NCBI RefSeq assembly: GCF_000015025.1
Contig: NC_008578.1
Location: 1,170,001-1,202,000 of the forward strand
Source: Acidothermus cellulolyticus 11B
Lineage (GTDB): Bacteria > Actinomycetota > Actinomycetes > Acidothermales > Acidothermaceae
Direction of reading: 5' to 3'
Length of the DNA: 32,000 bases
The notes under the pieces were generated by a model, which was given only the letters and a program-made list of their open reading frames with translations, ran no database searches and was not told where the DNA came from. Below, in pieces: positions 1,629 to 9,786 of this stretch. A program made the translations under genes and the position numbers. Position 1 is the first letter of the stretch, and each line of letters opens with the position of its first letter.

Positions 1629-2350
1629 CAGGTCTGGAAATCCTCCCGGCGGTCGACGTTGCCGGCGGCCAAGCGGTCCGACTGGTGCAAGGCGCGGCGG
1701 GGACGGAGACCCGCTACGGGTCGCCGCTGGAGGCCGCCCTGGCCTGGCAAGCGGCCGGGGCGCGCTGGATTCACCTCGTCGATTTGGATGCGGCGTTCGG
1801 CCGGGGGTCGAACCGGGAACTCCTTGCGGAGATCGTCGCGCGGGTCGACGTCGCCGTCGAACTCTCCGGCGGCATACGGGACGACGAGTCGCTGCGGGTC
1901 GCGCTGGCCACCGGATGCGCACGGGTGAACATCGGCACCGCCGCCCTGGAAAATCCGGAGTGGGTGCGCCGAGTGGTCGCCGAGTATGGCGAGAAAATCG
2001 CGGTCGGTCTCGACGTCCGGGACGGCCGGCTGGCGGCCCGGGGCTGGACGAAGGACGGCGGCGAGCTCTTCGAGGTTCTCGCCCGGCTCGACGCCGATGG
2101 CTGTGCGCGCTATGTCGTGACCGACGTCGCACGCGACGGCACACTGGGCGGACCGAACATCGAGCTGCTCCGCGCGGTCTGCGCCGCGACCGACCGGCCG
2201 GTGGTGGCAAGCGGCGGGATTTCCTCCCTGGACGACGTCCGCGCGGTTGCCGCTCTGGTGCCGCTCGGAGTCGAGGGGCTCATCATCGGAAAAGCGTTGT
2301 ACGCGGGCGTCTTCTCCCTTCGGGAGGCGATGACGGCCGCTCAGGCGTGA
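1619..2350 (+). CDS. priA: ProFAR isomerase; in actinobacteria this is the bifunctional HisA/TrpF enzyme PriA
   Basis: 243 aa with a (beta/alpha)8 HisA-family sequence ([49 protein letters not shown]). The start overlaps the hisH 3' end. No trpF is present in the adjacent trp cluster, consistent with a PriA role. Confidence 0.9.
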
Positions 2351-4127
2351 GAGGAACAACCGACGCCCGCGCCGGGACAGTCTCCGGTCCGGCCCCGCCC
2401 GGCGTGGGGCGCCGTCCCGGACCGCGGACGCCCTCCGGGAGGTGAAGGGCGAGCAGTTTCGCTGTGACGTCACGCGGGATTGCCCGCGGGGTGAGCCGGG
2501 ACACCACGACCATGGCCAGGAATGCGGTCGGCACCGTCCACACGGCGGGGACGGCGAGGAGCACCGCCGGCCATCCGGTCCGGCCGAGGCCCGCCATTGC
2601 GGAGATGATGGCGGCGGTCGCGGTACCGCCGCCGAGGAGCAGTCCCGCGAGGGCACCCGGACCGGTGAGCCGCCGCCACCAGATACCGAGGATGAGCAGC
2701 GGCCCGAACGAGGATGCGGCGATGGCGAACGCCCAACCGACGAGCACGTTGATGGAGAAGCTGCCTACGCCCAGACCACCGATGGTGACGGCGATCCCGG
2801 AACCGCATGCGGCGAGCCGAAATGCCCGGGAGCCGCGCCGCAGAATGTCATGACTGATCGCACCGGCCATCGCGATGAGCAGGCCCGACGACGTGGAGAG
2901 GAACGCCGCGACGGCCCCGGCGGTTGTCACTGCCCCCAGAAGGTCGCCGGCGAGCCCCGACGCCTGAGCGCGTGGCAGGACGAGGACGACGCCGTCGGTC
3001 TGGCCGGTGGCATACAGGCCGGGCGCGTTGAGCCGGCCGAGCAGCGCAAAGAGGCCGGGCAGGAGATAGAAGCACGAAACCAACAGCACGACGATTGCGG
3101 TGGTGCGCCGGGCGGCCTGTCCGTCGGGATTGGTGTAGAAGCGGACCAGGATGTGCGGCAATCCGAGCGCGCCGAGAAAAGTCGCGATGATGACGCCGTA
3201 GGTGGCGGCGAGCGGATGAATGAGCCGGCCGTTCAGGCGAATGAGCGGCGACATCCACTGCGTGCCGGTGGGGGTGGTGTTGCCGGCGACGGCCGGTGCC
3301 GGGGTTCCAGCCGGGAAGGTGAGTTCGGCGCCGGCGGCGATCCGGTGGGCGCCGGCGCCGAGCAGCCTCGCGCCGTGGAGTGAGGTGCTGTCGACCGTGC
3401 CGGAGCCGGTGACGGTGACCGGAGTCGTGACCATGATGGTCTCGGTGGTGGGGAAGCGAACACTTGTGGTGCGTGCGAAAACCGGCGGCGCGGGCCGCAC
3501 CGCGTCATGGAGCGGTGGATGGCGGATCACCGTGAGCAGGAGGAGCGCAGGGATGGCCAGCGCCGCGAGTTTCAACCAGAAGAGAAACGCCTGAACGATC
3601 GTGATACCGCGCATGCCGCCGCTGGCGATGGCCAGGGTGACGACGGTGCCGACCACGGTGACGCCGAGCCAGTACGGGGCGCCGAATATATCTTGCAAGG
3701 TGAGACCGGCGCCGCGCAGTTGAGGCAGCAGGTAGAAACCGCTGATCAGGATCACCACAACGGTCGCATATCGCCGAAGCCGCGGAGAATCAAGCCGGCC
3801 CTCGGCGAAATCCGGGATCGTGTACGCACCGAAGCGGCGCAGCGGAGCGGCGACGACGACAAGGAGCACGAGGTATCCGGCGGCGTATCCGACCGCATAC
3901 CACAAAGCGCCCAGGCCTTCGAACATCGCCAGCCCGGCGATGCCGAGGAAAGAAGCAGCCGAGAGGTATTCGCCGGAGATCGCCGAGGCATTGAGGAGCG
4001 GCGGCACTTGGCGCGCCGCGACGAGAAAGTCAGCCGGCGTGCGGGCCACCCGCAGCCCACGGACGCCGAGAATCGCCGTCACCACCGCGACGGCGAGCAC
4101 GGCTACCGCTGCAAGCGGCTCATTCAT
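2283..4127 (-). CDS. sodium:solute symporter family (SSS/SLC5) monocarboxylate transporter, ActP/MctC-like
   Basis: 614 aa, multi-TM. SSS signatures are present ([44 protein letters not shown]). It lies downstream of a DUF485 gene, as in yjcH-actP and cg0952-mctC. I chose ATG 4127 rather than the ORF-track 4238 because 4128-4238 is better explained by the small ORF in another frame. The substrate is not determinable from sequence. Confidence 0.85.
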
Positions 4128-4284
4128 CGAGGAGATCGCCGAAATTCCGGCCGCAGGTCGGGCAGGTCGCCGTCCCCGGTGTTTCGTTGAAGGCGCCGCA
4201 GGCGGGGCAGACGCGGTTCGCCCAACAGGCCGGGTCACCCCCCGTCTCGGGCTCCGGTGCGGCGGGAAGCGGTTCCTCGGTCAT
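4120..4284 (-). CDS. 54-aa zinc-ribbon micro-protein (two CPxCG knuckles); not present in the ORF track
   Basis: Hand translation: [54 protein letters not shown]. The ATG (4284-4282) overlaps the DUF485 TGA (ATGA), and GAGGAG lies 5 nt upstream. Its TGA (4122-4120) overlaps the symporter ATG (ATGAATGA). About 80% G/C at codon position 3. Confidence 0.6.
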   Translation of the reverse strand: MTEEPLPAAPEPETGGDPACWANRVCPACGAFNETPGTATCPTCGRNFGDLLDE

Positions 4285-4664
4285 GCGCTCTCCTCGTTGT
4301 CTTTGGCGAGAATCTCGGCGAAACGTCGTTCGACCCGGTGGGAGCGGCGGACGTACCAGAACGCCAGCGCCACCAGCGGCGGATACAGACCGCCGCCAAG
4401 GATGACGAGTGAGAGCGGGACGGGTCCCATCGTGGCGGTGGCCAGCGTCGGTAGCAGCACGACGAGGAGCGGGTAGAGCGCGACGAGTGCGGCGGCGGGC
4501 GCGAGCACGCTGAGACTCAGGCCGAGCTGCGCGCGCATCAGGGAGCGCAGCAGGGTTTCGCCGTAACTGCTCGCGGAGTAGAGGTCCTCGACCGCTGGGT
4601 ATCGGCGGCCGGCGGCCTGTCGCGGTGACGCGACGACGATCTCGCGGCGCGGATGCTGGGTCAC
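4281..4664 (-). CDS. DUF485-family small membrane protein (YjcH-like partner of SSS symporters)
   Basis: 127 aa with two predicted TM helices, followed by a basic, charged tail (WYVRRSHRVERRFAEIL). It sits upstream of the SSS gene. GTG 4664 overlaps the response-regulator TGA (GTGA). Confidence 0.7.
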   Translation of the reverse strand: MTQHPRREIVVASPRQAAGRRYPAVEDLYSASSYGETLLRSLMRAQLGLSLSVLAPAAALVALYPLLVVLLPTLATATMGPVPLSLVILGGGLYPPLVALAFWYVRRSHRVERRFAEILAKDNEESA

Positions 4665-5410
4665 GGCGCCTCCTCCCGGGGTGCGCGGCCGTGGAACAGC
4701 CGTTCCCGGAAGTCTCGGAGGTGACGGCGGCTCACCGGCAGGTGGTGGCCGCCGACGAGCACGCTGGTCTGACCGTCGCGGGTAGCGATCTCCCGGACCG
4801 CGCGCAGCGCCACCAGATGGCTGCGGTGAATGCGTGCGAAACCGTGCGGTTCCCAGCGCTCGGCGAGGACAGCGAGCGGCACTCGCACGAGGTAGCTGTG
4901 CCCATCATGAGTGTGCACCCGAACGTAGTCGCCGGCCGCCTCCACCCACTCGACCTCCGATCGGTCGATGAGCACGGTCCGGCCTGGGAGATCAGCGGCC
5001 AGGGTGGCGAACTGCTCGCCGCTGTCGCGATTGGCGGTCGACGTGCGGCCGGTGACCCTGGCCAGTGCGGCCGACAGCCGGTGGACATCGAACGGTTTGA
5101 GAACGTAGTCGACGGCCTGGACGCCGAAGGCGGCGACCGCATATTTCTCGTGGGCCGTGACGAACACAACCGCGGGCGCCCGGGCGAACCGGTTGAGCAC
5201 ACCGGCGAGTTCGAGGCCGTCCAGGCCGGGCATGACGACGTCGAGGAACACGACGTCCACGTCGTCGTGTTCGAGGCATCGCAACGCCTCCGCCGCATCG
5301 TGGGCGGCGTAAATTGTGCCGACCGCGGGGCACTGCCGCAGCGAATACACCAACTCGTCGAGCGCCGGCGGTTCGTCGTCCACTGCGAGAACGGACAGCT
5401 GCGTGGTCAC
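4661..5410 (-). CDS. two-component response regulator, REC + LytTR DNA-binding domain
   Basis: 249 aa. REC motifs (LAVDDEPP, VVFLDVVMPGLDG, KPF) and a C-terminal LytTR pattern (VEAAGDYVRVHT...FARIHRSHLVAL...LPVSRR). GTG 5410 overlaps the kinase TGA. Confidence 0.92.
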   Translation of the reverse strand: MTTQLSVLAVDDEPPALDELVYSLRQCPAVGTIYAAHDAAEALRCLEHDDVDVVFLDVVMPGLDGLELAGVLNRFARAPAVVFVTAHEKYAVAAFGVQAVDYVLKPFDVHRLSAALARVTGRTSTANRDSGEQFATLAADLPGRTVLIDRSEVEWVEAAGDYVRVHTHDGHSYLVRVPLAVLAERWEPHGFARIHRSHLVALRAVREIATRDGQTSVLVGGHHLPVSRRHLRDFRERLFHGRAPREEAP

Positions 5411-6597
5411 GAGGACACCCCCGCAAGGATCGCCGCGTGGTATTTCGGCACTCGGAACGTGACGCGCGTTCCGGCGCCGGGGCCGGTCTCGATGACCAGG
5501 CCGTACGAGTCGCCGAAGACCTTCCGGAGCCGCTCATCGACGTTGCGCAAGCCGATCGCCTCCTCGTCGGTCGTGCCGGCGAGAATGCGGCGGAGGCGCC
5601 GGGGATCGGCTCCGACCCCGTCGTCGTCCAAGCAGACGAGGACTTCGCTGTCCGCGTCCTATATGGAAATGTCCAGCCGACCGGATTGCTTGGGTTCGAG
5701 CCCGTGACGGATCGCGTTCTCCACCAGGGGTTGCAGGATCAAGGACGGGACCCGGACGGCGAGGACCTCCGGAGCAACGCGCAATGTGACGGCGAAGCGG
5801 TCGCCGAATCGGGCCTGCTCCAGTTCGAGATACAGCTCGACGAGGCGCAATTCTTCGGCCATGGTGGCAAATTGGCCGTGGCTGCGGAAGCAGTAGCGGG
5901 TGAAGTCGGCGAAGCCGACGAGAAGGCGACGGGCACGCTCCGGATACGACCGGACGAACGATTCAATCGCTGTCAAGGCGTTGTAGAGAAAATGCGGCGA
6001 GATCTGCGCTCGGAGGAAGCGGAGTTCAGCACGGGTCGCGCGCTCCTTTGACCGGTCGAGTTCGGCGAGCTTCAGCTGAGTGCAGAGAAACTCAGCGACT
6101 TCGCCGGTAAGGCGCAGGAGTCCGGCTCCGGCGGCGGCGTCGACCGCAGCCAGTGCGCCGAGAACTTTTCCTCCGATGCTGAGCGGGACGACGACGGCGC
6201 TCTGGAGGGCACAGCCGGCGCCCGATGCGCACTCGAGGGTACCCGCCGGCAGAACCTCGGGTCGGCCGGTGGCGATAGTCCGGCGTAGCGCGGAGTCCAG
6301 GAGAGCTCGGTGCGCATCGTCGACGCCGTCCGCCGCCAGAACTCCCTCGCCGTCGACGAGAAGGACGCCTCTGGTGCCGAGCAGGGCCCGCAGGTGGGGG
6401 ATCGCGGCCCCGGCTCCCTCGGCGGTCAAGCCGATGCGAAGCGCCGGCGCCGCGAGGTTGGCGGTCCGCAGCACCCGGTACGTCGCGCGCTGGTCTGTCG
6501 TACCGAGTGCTCGGTCGCCCCGCAGGCCGTACCGGAAAATGATGACGACGGCGCCGACCATAATCACCGCGGCGATCCAGAGGCCGACGTTCTTCAC
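5407..6597 (-). pseudogene. LytS/YehU-type sensor histidine kinase interrupted by an in-frame TAG (5659-5661). This could be a nonsense pseudogene, a sequencing error or read-through.
   Basis: A single frame contains one TM (VGLWIAAVIMVGAVVIIF), a GAF-like region, an H-box (FLRAQISPHFLYNAL) and an N-box (LVENAIRHG), then ...GRLDISI-TAG-DADSEVLVCLDDDGVG (G1) ...AIGLRNVDERL...GPGAGTRV (G2). The ORF track shows this as the tail of 5659..8799 plus the 74-aa ORF 5407..5631. I chose GTG 6597 as the start (GGGGG 5 nt upstream); 6603 and 6615 are possible. Confidence 0.8.
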
Positions 6598-6680
6598 CGT
6601 CACCCCCGTCCGCACGCCGAGGACTTTCTGCCCGAAGTATGACACTGACCAGCCGATCGAGGAAATCCGCGACGCCGTCA

Positions 6681-6754
6681 CTTTCGGCCGACGGCTGACT
6701 GCCGTTCGGCGCCCGCTGATGCACGTTCGGCGCAGGTCAGGCGCTGTTTGGCGA
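6681..6754. promoter_or_regulatory. array of four phased direct repeats; candidate LytTR operator in the divergent kinase/satP intergenic region
   Basis: CTTTCGGCCG (6681), CGTTCGGCGC (6703), CGTTCGGCGC (6724) and TGTTTGGCGA (6745). The start-to-start spacings are 22, 21 and 21 bp, and the two central 10-mers are identical. Confidence 0.45.
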
Positions 6755-6912
6755 TTGGCCGGCGCGCACTCGTTGCCGGGACCGCTGGGGAACTTCAACG
6801 ATTCTTGCGAGATCTCGTGGATGCTCCGGTGGCCGGCGACGTATTCGACGGCCGGATCGTCCCGGGAGGCATTGGGCGGTCGCCGACAGGGCGACAGGAA
6901 AGGGAGGGTGAC

Positions 6913-7593
6913 GTGTCCACGACCGTGGAATCCGGAAGGCTGGAACACGAGCAGCAGACGAAAGTGACGGGGATGCCGGCGCCGGCAGACCCGGCACCGC
7001 TTGGTCTCGCCGGTTTCGCACTCACAACATTCCTGCTCTCGGCAAAGAACGCGGGTTGGACGCACGGCACGGATGCCTGGCTCGGCTACGCATTCGCGTA
7101 CGGCGGTCTCGTCCAGTTGCTCGCCGGCATGTGGGAATTCCGCAACCGTAATGTTTTCGGTGCCACGGCATTTTCGACATACGGCGGCTTCTGGATCGGC
7201 CTCGGCCTTTACGTCAAGCTTGTCGCGCCCACCGCGCAGAATGGCTCGCAGGTCAGTAATGACCTCGCGTGGATTCTCCTTGCGTTTCTGATTTTCAACA
7301 GCTACATGCTGCTCTGGAGCCTGTGGACGAACTGGGCGGTATTCGGGGTGTTCCTCACCTTGGAGGTGACCGAGCTCGTGCTGGTCATCGGGAACTTCAA
7401 CGAGAACAGCAATGCCGTCAAGGCCGGTGGAGTGATCGGCGTCATCACCGCCGCGGTGGCGTGGTACACCTCGGCTGCCGGCGTTATCAACGGCATGGTG
7501 GGCCGTTCTCTGCTGCCGGTTGGATCGCCGCCGGCCGGGAATGTGGGTCGGGCGGCACCGGCTGTCACTCCGCAACCGGTTCCGCAACGCTAG
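6913..7593 (+). CDS. satP: GPR1/FUN34/YaaH-family acetate/succinate channel (SatP-like)
   Basis: 226 aa. It has the family signature DPAPLGLAGFALTTF (the NPAPLGL motif), six TM segments and FSTYGGFW. The start GTG 6913 lies 5 nt after a strong SD, AGGGAGG (6901-6907). ATG 6973 is an alternative start. Confidence 0.85.
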   Translation: MSTTVESGRLEHEQQTKVTGMPAPADPAPLGLAGFALTTFLLSAKNAGWTHGTDAWLGYAFAYGGLVQLLAGMWEFRNRNVFGATAFSTYGGFWIGLGLYVKLVAPTAQNGSQVSNDLAWILLAFLIFNSYMLLWSLWTNWAVFGVFLTLEVTELVLVIGNFNENSNAVKAGGVIGVITAAVAWYTSAAGVINGMVGRSLLPVGSPPAGNVGRAAPAVTPQPVPQR

Positions 7594-7641
7594 GAGCGAA
7601 TACGGCATGCATACGCGACGAAGAGGGGACGAAGGGAGCAG

Positions 7642-9786
7642 GTGATGGTGGCAGCAGATGATCGGGACACTCGTGCGGATGTCCCCGAGGTGGAGGTGTC
7701 CGAGGCGCAGATCGCGGTGCACTGGCGGGAGGAACCGTATTATTACCCGTCGGCCAAGTTCATCGCGCAGGCGAACGCGGGGGATCCGGCGATCCTGGAG
7801 CGTTTCAGTGAGCAGAATTTCCCCGAGTGCTTTCGGGTCTACGCCGATCTCCTGAGCTGGGACGCCTACTGGCACACGACGCTCGACACGAGCAATCCAC
7901 CGTTCTGGAAGTGGTTCGTCGGCGGCCGGCTCAACGCCTGCTACAACTGCGTCGATCGCCATTTGGCGGCGTCCGCGAACAAGGCGGCGTTCATCTGGGT
8001 TCCCGAACCGGAGAACGAGCCGACGCTGGCGCTCACCTACCAGGAGTTGTATCGACGGGTGAACGAATTCGCCGCACTGCTCCGCGACTTCGCCGGGGTG
8101 AAGACCGGAGACCGGGTGACGCTCCACTTGCCGATGGTGCCGGAATTGCCGATTGCCATGCTCGCCTGCGCCCGGCTCGGCGCCATCCATTCCCAGGTCT
8201 TCGCCGGCTTCAGCGGTGCCGCGTGCGGGGACCGGATCGCCGACGCAGAGAGCAAGGTGCTCATCACCATGGACGGGTACTACCGGGCCGGCGACTTGCT
8301 CGACCATAAGGTGAAAGCCGATGAGGCGGTGGCCCGTGCCGCCCAACAGGGGTGCACGGTGGAGAAGGTGCTCGTCTTCCGCCGCCACGCCGGGCAGTAC
8401 GCGTCCAAGAGCCCCATGGTCGACGGACGCGATTTCTTCGTCGACGACATTCTGCCGCAGTTCCGGAATAAGCTCGTCGCTCCGGTCTCCATGCCGGCCG
8501 AGTCCACGTTGTTTCTCATGTACACGAGCGGTACGACAGGCCGGCCGAAGGGGTGCCAGCACTCCACCGGCGGTTATCTCAGTTACGTGGCTGGGACGTC
8601 GAAGTACTACCTCGACATCCACCCGGAGGACACCTACTGGTGCTTCGCCGATATTGGGTGGATCACCGGGCACAGTTACATCGTGTACGGTCCATTGGCG
8701 CTGGGCACGACGAGTGTGATGTACGAAGGCACGCCGACGTATCCGGACGCCGGCCGCCCGTGGCGGATTGCCGAGCGCCTCGGCGTGAACATCTTCCACA
8801 CGTCACCGACAACGATCCGCATGCTCAGGAAGGTGGGGCCGGACGAGCCAGCCAAATACAACTACCACTTCAAGCTGATGACCACCGTCGGTGAGCCGAT
8901 CGAACCGGACGTCTGGCGCTGGTATTACGACGTGATTGGGAAAGGCGAAGCCGTCATCACCGACACGTGGTGGCAGACCGAGACCGGCGGTTTCCTCGGG
9001 TGCCAGCTCCCCGCGCTGGCGCCGATGAAGCCGGGCAGCTGCGGCCCTGGTGTACTCGGCGTCTTCCCGGTCATTTACGACGAGAACGGCGAGGTGGTGC
9101 CGCCGGGCAGCGGCCGGGCCGGCAATATGTGCATCCGCAACCCATGGCCTGGTGTATTCCAGGGCATTTGGAAGCAGCCGGAACGGTTCGTGCAGACCTA
9201 CTACGCCAAGTACTGCCGCAACCCCGAGAGCAAGGACTGGCGGGATTGGCCGTATTTCTCCGGTGACGGCGCTGTGCAGGCCGCCGACGGTTACTTCCGG
9301 ATCCTCGGCCGGGTGGACGACGTCATCAATGTGGCCGGGCACCGGCTCGGCACCAAAGAACTGGAATCCGCGACGCTGACCGTGCCGGAGATCGCGGAGG
9401 CAGCCGCGGTCCCGGTGATGGACGAGCTCCGGGGTCGGGCGGTGGAGATGTACGTGACGCTCAAACCCGGCGTGGCGGCAAGTACCGAGATCACGGAGAA
9501 GGTCACCAAGGCGATCGAGACGGAGATCGGTAAGATCGCCCGACCCAAGAGCATCTGGATCGTCAGTGATCTGCCGAAGACGCGGTCGGCGAAAATCATG
9601 CGCCGGATTCTGGCTGGGATCTCCAACTTCACCGACGTCGGCGACACGACGACGCTGGCCAACCCCGAGGTCGTCGAGGAGATTCGGCGGGCGGTTCAGA
9701 AGGCGAAGATCGACCGTGGCGAGGTGCCGCGGCAGCTTACCCCGGAGGAACTCGAAGAGATCCGCGCCTTCGGCCGGGTGGAGTAG
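7642..9786 (+). CDS. acs: AMP-forming acetyl-CoA synthetase family (acetate--CoA ligase)
   Basis: 714 aa. Motifs: WFVGGRLNACYNCVDRH, AMP-binding YTSGTTGRPKG, WWQTETGG and C-terminal RSAKIMRRIL (the catalytic, acetylatable Lys context). SD GAAGGGAG is at 7631-7638; the start is GTG 7642 or ATG 7645. Confidence 0.9.
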   Translation: MMVAADDRDTRADVPEVEVSEAQIAVHWREEPYYYPSAKFIAQANAGDPAILERFSEQNFPECFRVYADLLSWDAYWHTTLDTSNPPFWKWFVGGRLNACYNCVDRHLAASANKAAFIWVPEPENEPTLALTYQELYRRVNEFAALLRDFAGVKTGDRVTLHLPMVPELPIAMLACARLGAIHSQVFAGFSGAACGDRIADAESKVLITMDGYYRAGDLLDHKVKADEAVARAAQQGCTVEKVLVFRRHAGQYASKSPMVDGRDFFVDDILPQFRNKLVAPVSMPAESTLFLMYTSGTTGRPKGCQHSTGGYLSYVAGTSKYYLDIHPEDTYWCFADIGWITGHSYIVYGPLALGTTSVMYEGTPTYPDAGRPWRIAERLGVNIFHTSPTTIRMLRKVGPDEPAKYNYHFKLMTTVGEPIEPDVWRWYYDVIGKGEAVITDTWWQTETGGFLGCQLPALAPMKPGSCGPGVLGVFPVIYDENGEVVPPGSGRAGNMCIRNPWPGVFQGIWKQPERFVQTYYAKYCRNPESKDWRDWPYFSGDGAVQAADGYFRILGRVDDVINVAGHRLGTKELESATLTVPEIAEAAAVPVMDELRGRAVEMYVTLKPGVAASTEITEKVTKAIETEIGKIARPKSIWIVSDLPKTRSAKIMRRILAGISNFTDVGDTTTLANPEVVEEIRRAVQKAKIDRGEVPRQLTPEELEEIRAFGRVE

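Follow-up and report, generated by a model that had tools for sequence, protein, structure and literature searches.

A small gene with a predicted zinc-ribbon product inserted at an operon junction upstream of a symporter gene in Acidothermus

We analysed a 32,000-nucleotide stretch of the Acidothermus cellulolyticus 11B genome (contig NC_008578.1, positions 1,170,001 to 1,202,000; hereafter the window, whose first letter is position 1) and focused on a 54-codon open reading frame (ORF) on its minus strand (4120..4284), which encodes a small, acidic, cysteine-rich protein of predicted zinc-ribbon type, below called the ribbon. The ORF lies between the gene of a small protein with two transmembrane (TM) segments and the gene of a symporter of the sodium/solute symporter (SSS) type. 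It is very probably a real translated gene, as judged from purifying selection, frame conservation and the retention of its cysteines in a second species. Comparison of related loci indicates that it is an Acidothermus-specific insertion at the TM-SSS junction, and not an overlooked general component of such transporter units.

Coding evidence for the ribbon gene

The boundaries of the gene were established by translation, public gene calls and exact-sequence look-up. The frame opens with an ATG at 4284-4282, which shares the sequence ATGA with the TGA (4283-4281) that ends the 127-aa gene upstream, and closes with a stop at 4122-4120 that lies within ATGAATGA, shared with the symporter ATG at 4127. 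A Shine-Dalgarno-like hexamer, GAGGAG (4290..4295, minus strand), is located 5 nt 5' of the ribbon ATG, within the final codons of the 127-aa gene. The two overlaps, the GAGGAG and its spacing had been described in an initial annotation made from the letters of the window, as had the two CPxCG knuckles, which we found in the translation as CPACG (C26 and C29; 4195..4209, minus strand) and CPTCG (C41 and C44; 4150..4164, minus strand). The G+C content at third codon positions (GC3), put there at about 80% for the small frame and about 59% for the competing frame of a symporter extension (4238..4128), was computed as 78.2% and 59.5% respectively. The encoded protein has 54 aa, a net charge of -7 and an isoelectric point (pI) of 4.05. 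We infer that it is made via translational coupling, in step with the transporter.

Because the GC-rich window holds many chance ORFs (81 ORFs of at least 40 aa overlap its first 10 kb, at 67% GC), the length of the frame is by itself little evidence for a gene. The motif content is more telling: a six-frame translation of the whole 32-kb window (63,996 residues) contained three CPxCG motifs, two of them in the ribbon ORF, and a single CxxC-(8-20)-CxxC pair, that of the ribbon ORF. The two-knuckle motif is not a chance occurrence. Across A. cellulolyticus strains and contigs we counted 7 distinct variable sites in the ORF (contigs L001 and L002 differ from the window at 5 sites, and L094 at 3), and all 7 are third-codon positions and synonymous, for which the probability without frame constraint is ~(1/3)^7. 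The exact protein was called on at least 23 public contigs and is held in RefSeq as WP_169303193.1 (hypothetical protein, Acidothermus cellulolyticus). The gene is therefore not unannotated, and its description as unlisted applied to the ORF track used for the initial annotation and to nothing else.

An orthologue was retrieved from a second species, Acidothermus sp. HOT.MAX.052, whose symporter is 71% identical to that of the window. At the equivalent TM-symporter junction this genome carries a 52-aa ORF (MSDEPVTSHDDVGDPACWANRVCLRCGAFDEENRGSRCAVCGYVLSIDADEA) with ATGA overlaps at both ends and an AGGAGG 7 nt 5' of its ATG, listed at NCBI as hypothetical protein IRZ02_01765. It retains GDPACWANRVC and every cysteine. 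Between the two species the ribbon gene has a dN of 0.54, a dS of 2.5 (saturated) and an omega of ~0.2, to be compared with 0.14 for the symporter and 0.13 for the response regulator of the same operon. Conservation of the frame, conservation of the cysteines and a dN/dS below 1, which the initial annotation had proposed to look for, were thus all found in this orthologue, and the insertion has been retained in two Acidothermus species despite saturated synonymous sites.

Comparison of related loci

A scan for related symporters, with one genome per species, returned 78 loci. A small TM gene was present upstream of the symporter in 68 of them, and the two genes overlapped or stood at most ~31 nt apart in 64 of these 68 (mostly as ATGA, a gap of -4), which leaves no room there for a third gene. 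The assumption of the initial annotation that such small-protein and symporter genes form two-gene units agrees with these counts. A ribbon gene was found at the TM-SSS junction only in the two Acidothermus species; in the window, a 153-nt insertion with the ribbon gene parts the TM and SSS genes, and the small-subunit gene does not abut the symporter. Because the 64 loci offer no room for the ribbon gene and because its homologues elsewhere occur in unrelated contexts, the earlier proposal of an undescribed component of such units had to be given up in favour of a lineage-specific insertion.

Sphaerisporangium flaviroseum (L043 5801-5940) and Nonomuraea candida (L082 5834-5943) also have a gap between the TM and symporter genes. 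In both it is filled by tandem repeats of low complexity over 110-140 nt, of which GDARDGDARDGDARPGDPRPGDPRPG, in frame with the symporter, is an example. The ribbon sequence was not found in these two gapped junctions, and their repeats could represent either an N-terminal extension that varies or repeats of an intergenic kind.

The protein family of the ribbon

A single-sequence search against 5.8 billion sequences returned four clusters, three of which (P0002-P0004) had E-values of 1e-5 to 6e-5, a small number set by the limits of the word index. When 1.84 billion representatives were searched with a profile, 667 clusters came up at E<=1e-3, of which 65 reached E<=1e-10, and profile searches of 90%-identity clusters yielded 1354 to 1654 family clusters. 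The family is defined by the signature GGDPACW-x2-RVCPxCG-x11-CxxCG, with 10-11 residues accepted between the knuckles, all of which is carried by the window protein, and has the consensus ...DEGGDPACWLxRVCPACGRLADEDPPTRCPACGAELPxD. The GGDPACW motif corresponds to residues 15-21 (4222..4242, minus strand). In an alignment of 71 sequences, eleven columns were invariant (G15, G16, C20, W21, R24, V25, C26, C29, G30, C41 and C44), while D17, P18 and A19 were conserved at 94-99%. The first-knuckle cysteines were invariant in both family alignments, and those of the second knuckle invariant or nearly so in the two. The family thus has five conserved cysteines, not four, the fifth being C20 within GGDPACW.

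Family members are 45-75 aa long and all acidic (median net charge -7, highest pI 5.06), their C-terminus is not conserved across the family, and the window ribbon is 40-56% identical, over its full length, to those compared. The loop between the knuckles reads AFNETPGTAT in the window ribbon versus RLADEDPPTR in the consensus; both operon copies, in A. cellulolyticus and in the second species, have GAF[ND]E where the family consensus is RLADE. This shared non-consensus loop is a hint of specialisation. Every family member with an organism named in its source belongs to Actinomycetota, the named hosts being Blastococcus, Actinomycetospora, Jatrophihabitantaceae, Pseudonocardiaceae, Streptosporangiaceae, Trebonia and Acidothermus.

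Fused copies of the GGDPACW ribbon module were seen as well, C-terminal in DUF488 proteins (P0042, P0059, P0063) and MarR regulators (P0029, P0263), and as part of other larger protein(s) (P0133). These fusions suggest that the module is portable and serves in binding or sensing.

No Pfam or NCBIfam model scored above its cut-off for the family. PF26443 (DUF8122) has a weak precomputed match for a few members, and JGI automatic naming labels many of them "rubrerythrin". Literature searches on DUF485 plus zinc ribbon, on DUF8122 and on WP_169303193 found no papers, and neither papers, protein names nor solved structures gave functional information on the family. What is new here is the lineage-specific placement, since the protein itself belongs to a known kind, that of small CPxCG zinc-ribbon proteins, and is annotated as hypothetical.

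Predicted fold and metal binding

An AlphaFold2 model built with the 71 sequences had a mean predicted local distance difference test score (pLDDT) of 72, with a core at ~80, disordered termini and isolated bridge residues beside both knuckles. The top Foldseek neighbours of this model (all at E>1) were rubredoxins, rubrerythrin, TFS4, LysW and NZF-type ribbons. No relative of solved structure was found, a sequence-profile search of the PDB giving generic knuckle-level matches. The best Pfam match of the ribbon was Zn_ribbon_3, with 21.6 bits versus a cut-off of 27, others being lower, and matches of generic zinc-ribbon and rubredoxin-like hidden Markov models (HMMs) to the ribbon and its family were weak. 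The zinc ribbon suggested by the initial annotation is consistent with these results: the hallmarks of a Cys4 zinc ribbon recur in the HMM, alignment, AlphaFold2 and Foldseek analyses, the HMM and Foldseek matches being weak or non-significant. A minimal Cys4 zinc ribbon formed by C26/C29 and C41/C44 is accordingly the predicted fold, a call that is well motivated, not proven. Zinc binding by the window ribbon cannot be assumed, because among the C(P)XCG micro-proteins of haloarchaea several are reported to bind none (PMC11241148).

Two more specific identities were tried and rejected. Rubredoxins and the rubredoxin-like domain of rubrerythrin have CxxCG/CPxCG knuckles in common with the ribbon and are its top, non-significant structural and HMM neighbours. 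In rubredoxin, however, the knuckles are roughly 30 residues apart, versus 11 in the ribbon; the PDB rubredoxin match had E ~0.13, the best RUBY_RBDX match of the family (E 2.5e-5) was below threshold, and the operon holds no redox partner genes. A LysW-type amino-group carrier was discarded on E-values of ~0.26-0.27, the unconserved C-terminus of the family and the lack of lysine/arginine biosynthetic partners in the operon.

The operon and its neighbours

The ribbon gene is the fourth of five genes, in the order kinase, LytTR regulator, TM protein, ribbon and SSS symporter, in which neighbours overlap by 4-8 nt. Divergent from this operon are genes for a GPR1/FUN34/YaaH (SatP-type) channel and an acetyl-CoA synthetase (acs), and histidine-biosynthesis genes lie downstream of it.

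The symporter (2283..4127, minus strand; 614 aa) matches Pfam SSF (PF00474) at E=1e-36, and its ATG overlaps the ribbon stop by 8 nt. It is closest to the VC_2705, ActP and MctC types of NCBIfam, below every cut-off: 219.5 bits for VC_2705 (cut-off 320.75), 170 for MctC (670) and 137-174 for ActP (750-1099). A monocarboxylate substrate is therefore taken from gene context. The Arg/Pro-rich, low-complexity C-terminal tail of the symporter (~2283-2353 in the window; 7935-8005 in L001) overlaps the 3' end of a convergent His_biosynth (hisA/hisF-like) gene by ~70 nt.

The 127-aa two-TM protein (4281..4664, minus strand), whose stop overlaps the ribbon ATG, had been called a DUF485 protein. By itself it stays under the Pfam thresholds, both for DUF4212 (E=0.0027, 18.5 bits, cut-off 30) and for DUF485 (E=0.024, 15.1 bits, cut-off 28). 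Of its 22 orthologues, every one has a weak DUF485 match that covers almost the full profile (best E 3.2e-5), and 18 match DUF4212; from these matches we take it to be a divergent symporter small subunit, related to both families.

The LytTR-type response regulator (4661..5410, minus strand; Response_reg plus LytTR, BtsR-like) has a stop that overlaps the GTG start of the TM gene, and the LytS-type histidine kinase (5407..6645, minus strand; His_kinase plus HATPase_c) was delimited from gene calls and Pfam matches on the near-identical contig L003. The claim that the transporter genes form one operon with a LytS/LytTR pair stands in that both genes are overlap-coupled. The kinase gene itself encodes ~412 aa according to the L003 gene calls, is not the 1046-aa ORF that had been listed (5659-8799, minus strand), and is interrupted in the window by an in-frame TAG. 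This TAG (5661-5659, minus strand) falls within the HATPase_c region (…GRLDISI*DADSE…), where L003 has GAG (Glu). The window and L003 differ twice in 1,550 bases, at the kinase stop site and at 5946, with G in L003 and T in the window in both cases; the operon kinase is either truncated in the window sequence or the TAG is a sequencing or strain variant. No gene corresponds to the 1046-aa ORF, of which the C-terminal part alone is kinase and the rest runs antisense to the divergent SatP-type channel and acetyl-CoA synthetase genes, as seen from the L003 gene calls. A Pfam scan of the kinase for sensor domains found none, nor the 5TM LytS domain; besides His_kinase and HATPase_c it gave a weak, sub-threshold GAF match. 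The kinase orthologue of the second Acidothermus species (3515-4717 of locus L042) has a single N-terminal hydrophobic segment. The kinase may need a partner for sensing, for instance the transporter.

Comparison with known systems

The small two-TM gene directly upstream of an SSF symporter gene, as seen in the orthologous group, is also the arrangement of yjcH-actP and cg0952-mctC, and acs and satP are adjacent in the window. The window unit differs from these in that a third gene interrupts the pair, in being co-operonic with a LytS-type/LytTR pair, and in that both of its proteins are below the family cut-offs.

Small proteins that modulate transporters are known from E. coli, namely AcrZ with AcrB, MgtS with MgtA and PitA, MntS with MntP, and SgrT with PtsG. 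The likeness to the ribbon would lie in the proposed action, a protein of less than 60 aa binding to a membrane transporter and adjusting its activity, and is an analogy; these proteins have no sequence relationship to the ribbon and mostly consist of membrane helices or unstructured peptides instead of zinc ribbons.

The ribbon can also be compared with the C(P)XCG micro-proteins of haloarchaea, among them Brz of Halobacterium salinarum and HVO_0758 of Haloferax volcanii. Like it they are shorter than 70 aa with two C(P)XCG knuckles, and they often adjoin the genes they influence; the brz gene, for one, is immediately 5' of bop, which Brz regulates (PMC2253796, PMC10716476, PMC11241148). The haloarchaeal proteins are from a different domain of life, however, and matches to DUF7575, DUF7577 and HVO_0758 (E ~1e-4 to 0.3) were below cut-offs, which amounts to no significant relationship. 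The ribbon also stands apart from the other members of its own family, which are stand-alone genes in unrelated contexts, whereas it is embedded in an overlap-coupled operon.

Possible function of the ribbon

In the Acidothermus lineage one family copy was inserted precisely at the ATGA junction of the TM and SSS genes, and the stop/start overlaps were preserved on both sides. In the explanation that we favour, the ribbon would act as a zinc-stabilised, possibly thiol/redox-sensitive, protein-binding module. It would dock at a cytoplasmic face of one of its operon partners, either the TM/SSS transporter or the kinase, and would thereby tune monocarboxylate uptake or signalling. Its strongly acidic character makes nucleic-acid binding unlikely and protein binding more likely. 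The ribbon would then be a dispensable accessory peculiar to this lineage, as opposed to a core subunit, an account that we hold tentatively and rate somewhat short of an even chance; a functional tie to the transporter or to the two-component system is, taken as such, plausible but short of probable. A bolder version, which strikes us as improbable, would make the ribbon a third subunit or co-sensor on the cytoplasmic face of the TM/SSS transporter that reports transporter state, or thiol/zinc status, to the kinase and so couples acetate/pyruvate uptake to signalling, and would make the GGDPACW family (more than 1,300 clusters) one of portable protein-binding regulatory micro-proteins of Actinobacteria.

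Several observations weigh against such an accessory role. In 64 of the 68 orthologous regulator-TM-SSS loci the TM and SSS genes are so closely spaced that no ribbon gene intervenes, so neither the transporter nor its regulation requires it there. The ribbon diverges faster than its neighbours, with 47% identity between the window and the second species, versus 75% for the symporter and 69% for the response regulator. On the structural side, nothing in the Foldseek comparison against the PDB was significant, and the model is moderately confident. Elsewhere, family members lie beside PNPOx, Fpg/metallo-beta-lactamase, ArgRS/aminotransferase, DoxX/PBP, DUF2249-hemerythrin, GntR/OYE and NarG fragments. 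We also searched 86 family loci (419 kb) by tblastn, using three SSS proteins and as many small subunits as queries: an SSF pair was found near family members of one synteny group only, in Geodermatophilaceae, at a distance of 0.6-3 kb and not adjacent.

That the ribbon family is linked to SSS transporters in general was rejected on that single, non-adjacent synteny group in 86 loci and on eight further contexts, in which the neighbours were unrelated. A rough clustering of neighbour genes in which a strict filter left 55 ORFs, and which is thus a weak negative, gave no recurrent partner.

The synteny group itself comprises Blastococcus-like genomes (L088 4001-6786, L089 4001-8147, L106, L138, L164), in which a family member lies near a DUF4212+SSF or DUF485+SSF pair in a conserved Fpg/metallo-beta-lactamase neighbourhood. 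With only one such group, chance could account for the proximity.

Alternative explanations

Nearly as likely as an accessory role is that the ribbon merely travels with the operon, doing there the general job of its family (for instance a thiol/redox- or metal-related one) and functionally unconnected with both transport and the two-component system. This is what one would expect of a family that is widespread as stand-alone genes in variable contexts, shows no general SSF association and has its domain fused to modules as unrelated as DUF488 and MarR, and nearly all orthologous operons do without the ribbon. Neighbours of redox type recur in several other places (PNPOx, hemerythrin/DUF2249, ferredoxin, CMD, DoxX, OYE and Mn catalase), and a thiol-sensitive role would suit the invariant fifth cysteine, which we record as an impression. 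Such a passenger is harder to reconcile with the precision of the insertion, with the retention of both overlaps in two species that have diverged to saturation at synonymous sites, and with the departure of the operon copies from the family consensus in the loop, which suggests specialisation. In addition, genes in tightly coupled bacterial operons are usually functionally related.

The remaining readings deny that the small frame is a gene, and even taken together they are very unlikely. That it is a spurious ORF, a non-coding spacer or a structured RNA element would fit the many chance ORFs of GC-rich genomes, and yet the substitutions within the species are synonymous only, frame and cysteines are conserved in the second species and there are hundreds of homologues, while other lineages with a junction gap carry low-complexity repeats instead; we regard it as highly improbable. 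An RNA element was also rejected directly, as the predicted fold was no better than that of shuffled sequences (z = -0.51) and no Rfam match was obtained at E<=1.

Least likely of all, and hardly credible, is that the region is an N-terminal extension of the symporter from a GTG start at 4238, with the small frame untranslated: a 651-aa ORF (4238..2283) is indeed open in the window, but its extension has the lower GC3 given above, encodes a low-complexity peptide rich in Arg, Pro and Ala, and takes at other codon positions the strain differences that are silent in the small ORF, while in the second species the symporter ORF opens only at the ATG overlapping the ribbon stop, the frame being closed further upstream, and the symporter orthologues align from residue 1 at ATG 4127, abutting the TM gene. 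A symporter start at 4238 was rejected on these grounds, and the preference of the initial annotation for the small ORF was well placed.

Significance

The Acidothermus ribbon is a clean example of a micro-protein gene placed exactly at an overlapping stop/start operon junction and then kept under selection, and it draws attention to a large family of acidic, five-cysteine zinc-ribbon micro-proteins in Actinomycetota. If it does not modulate the symporter or the kinase, it would simply add to the hypothetical small proteins, and DUF485-like/SSS units would keep their two-gene model. If it does, it would provide the first functional handle on the family, and a soluble zinc-ribbon type would join the known small-protein regulators of transporters.

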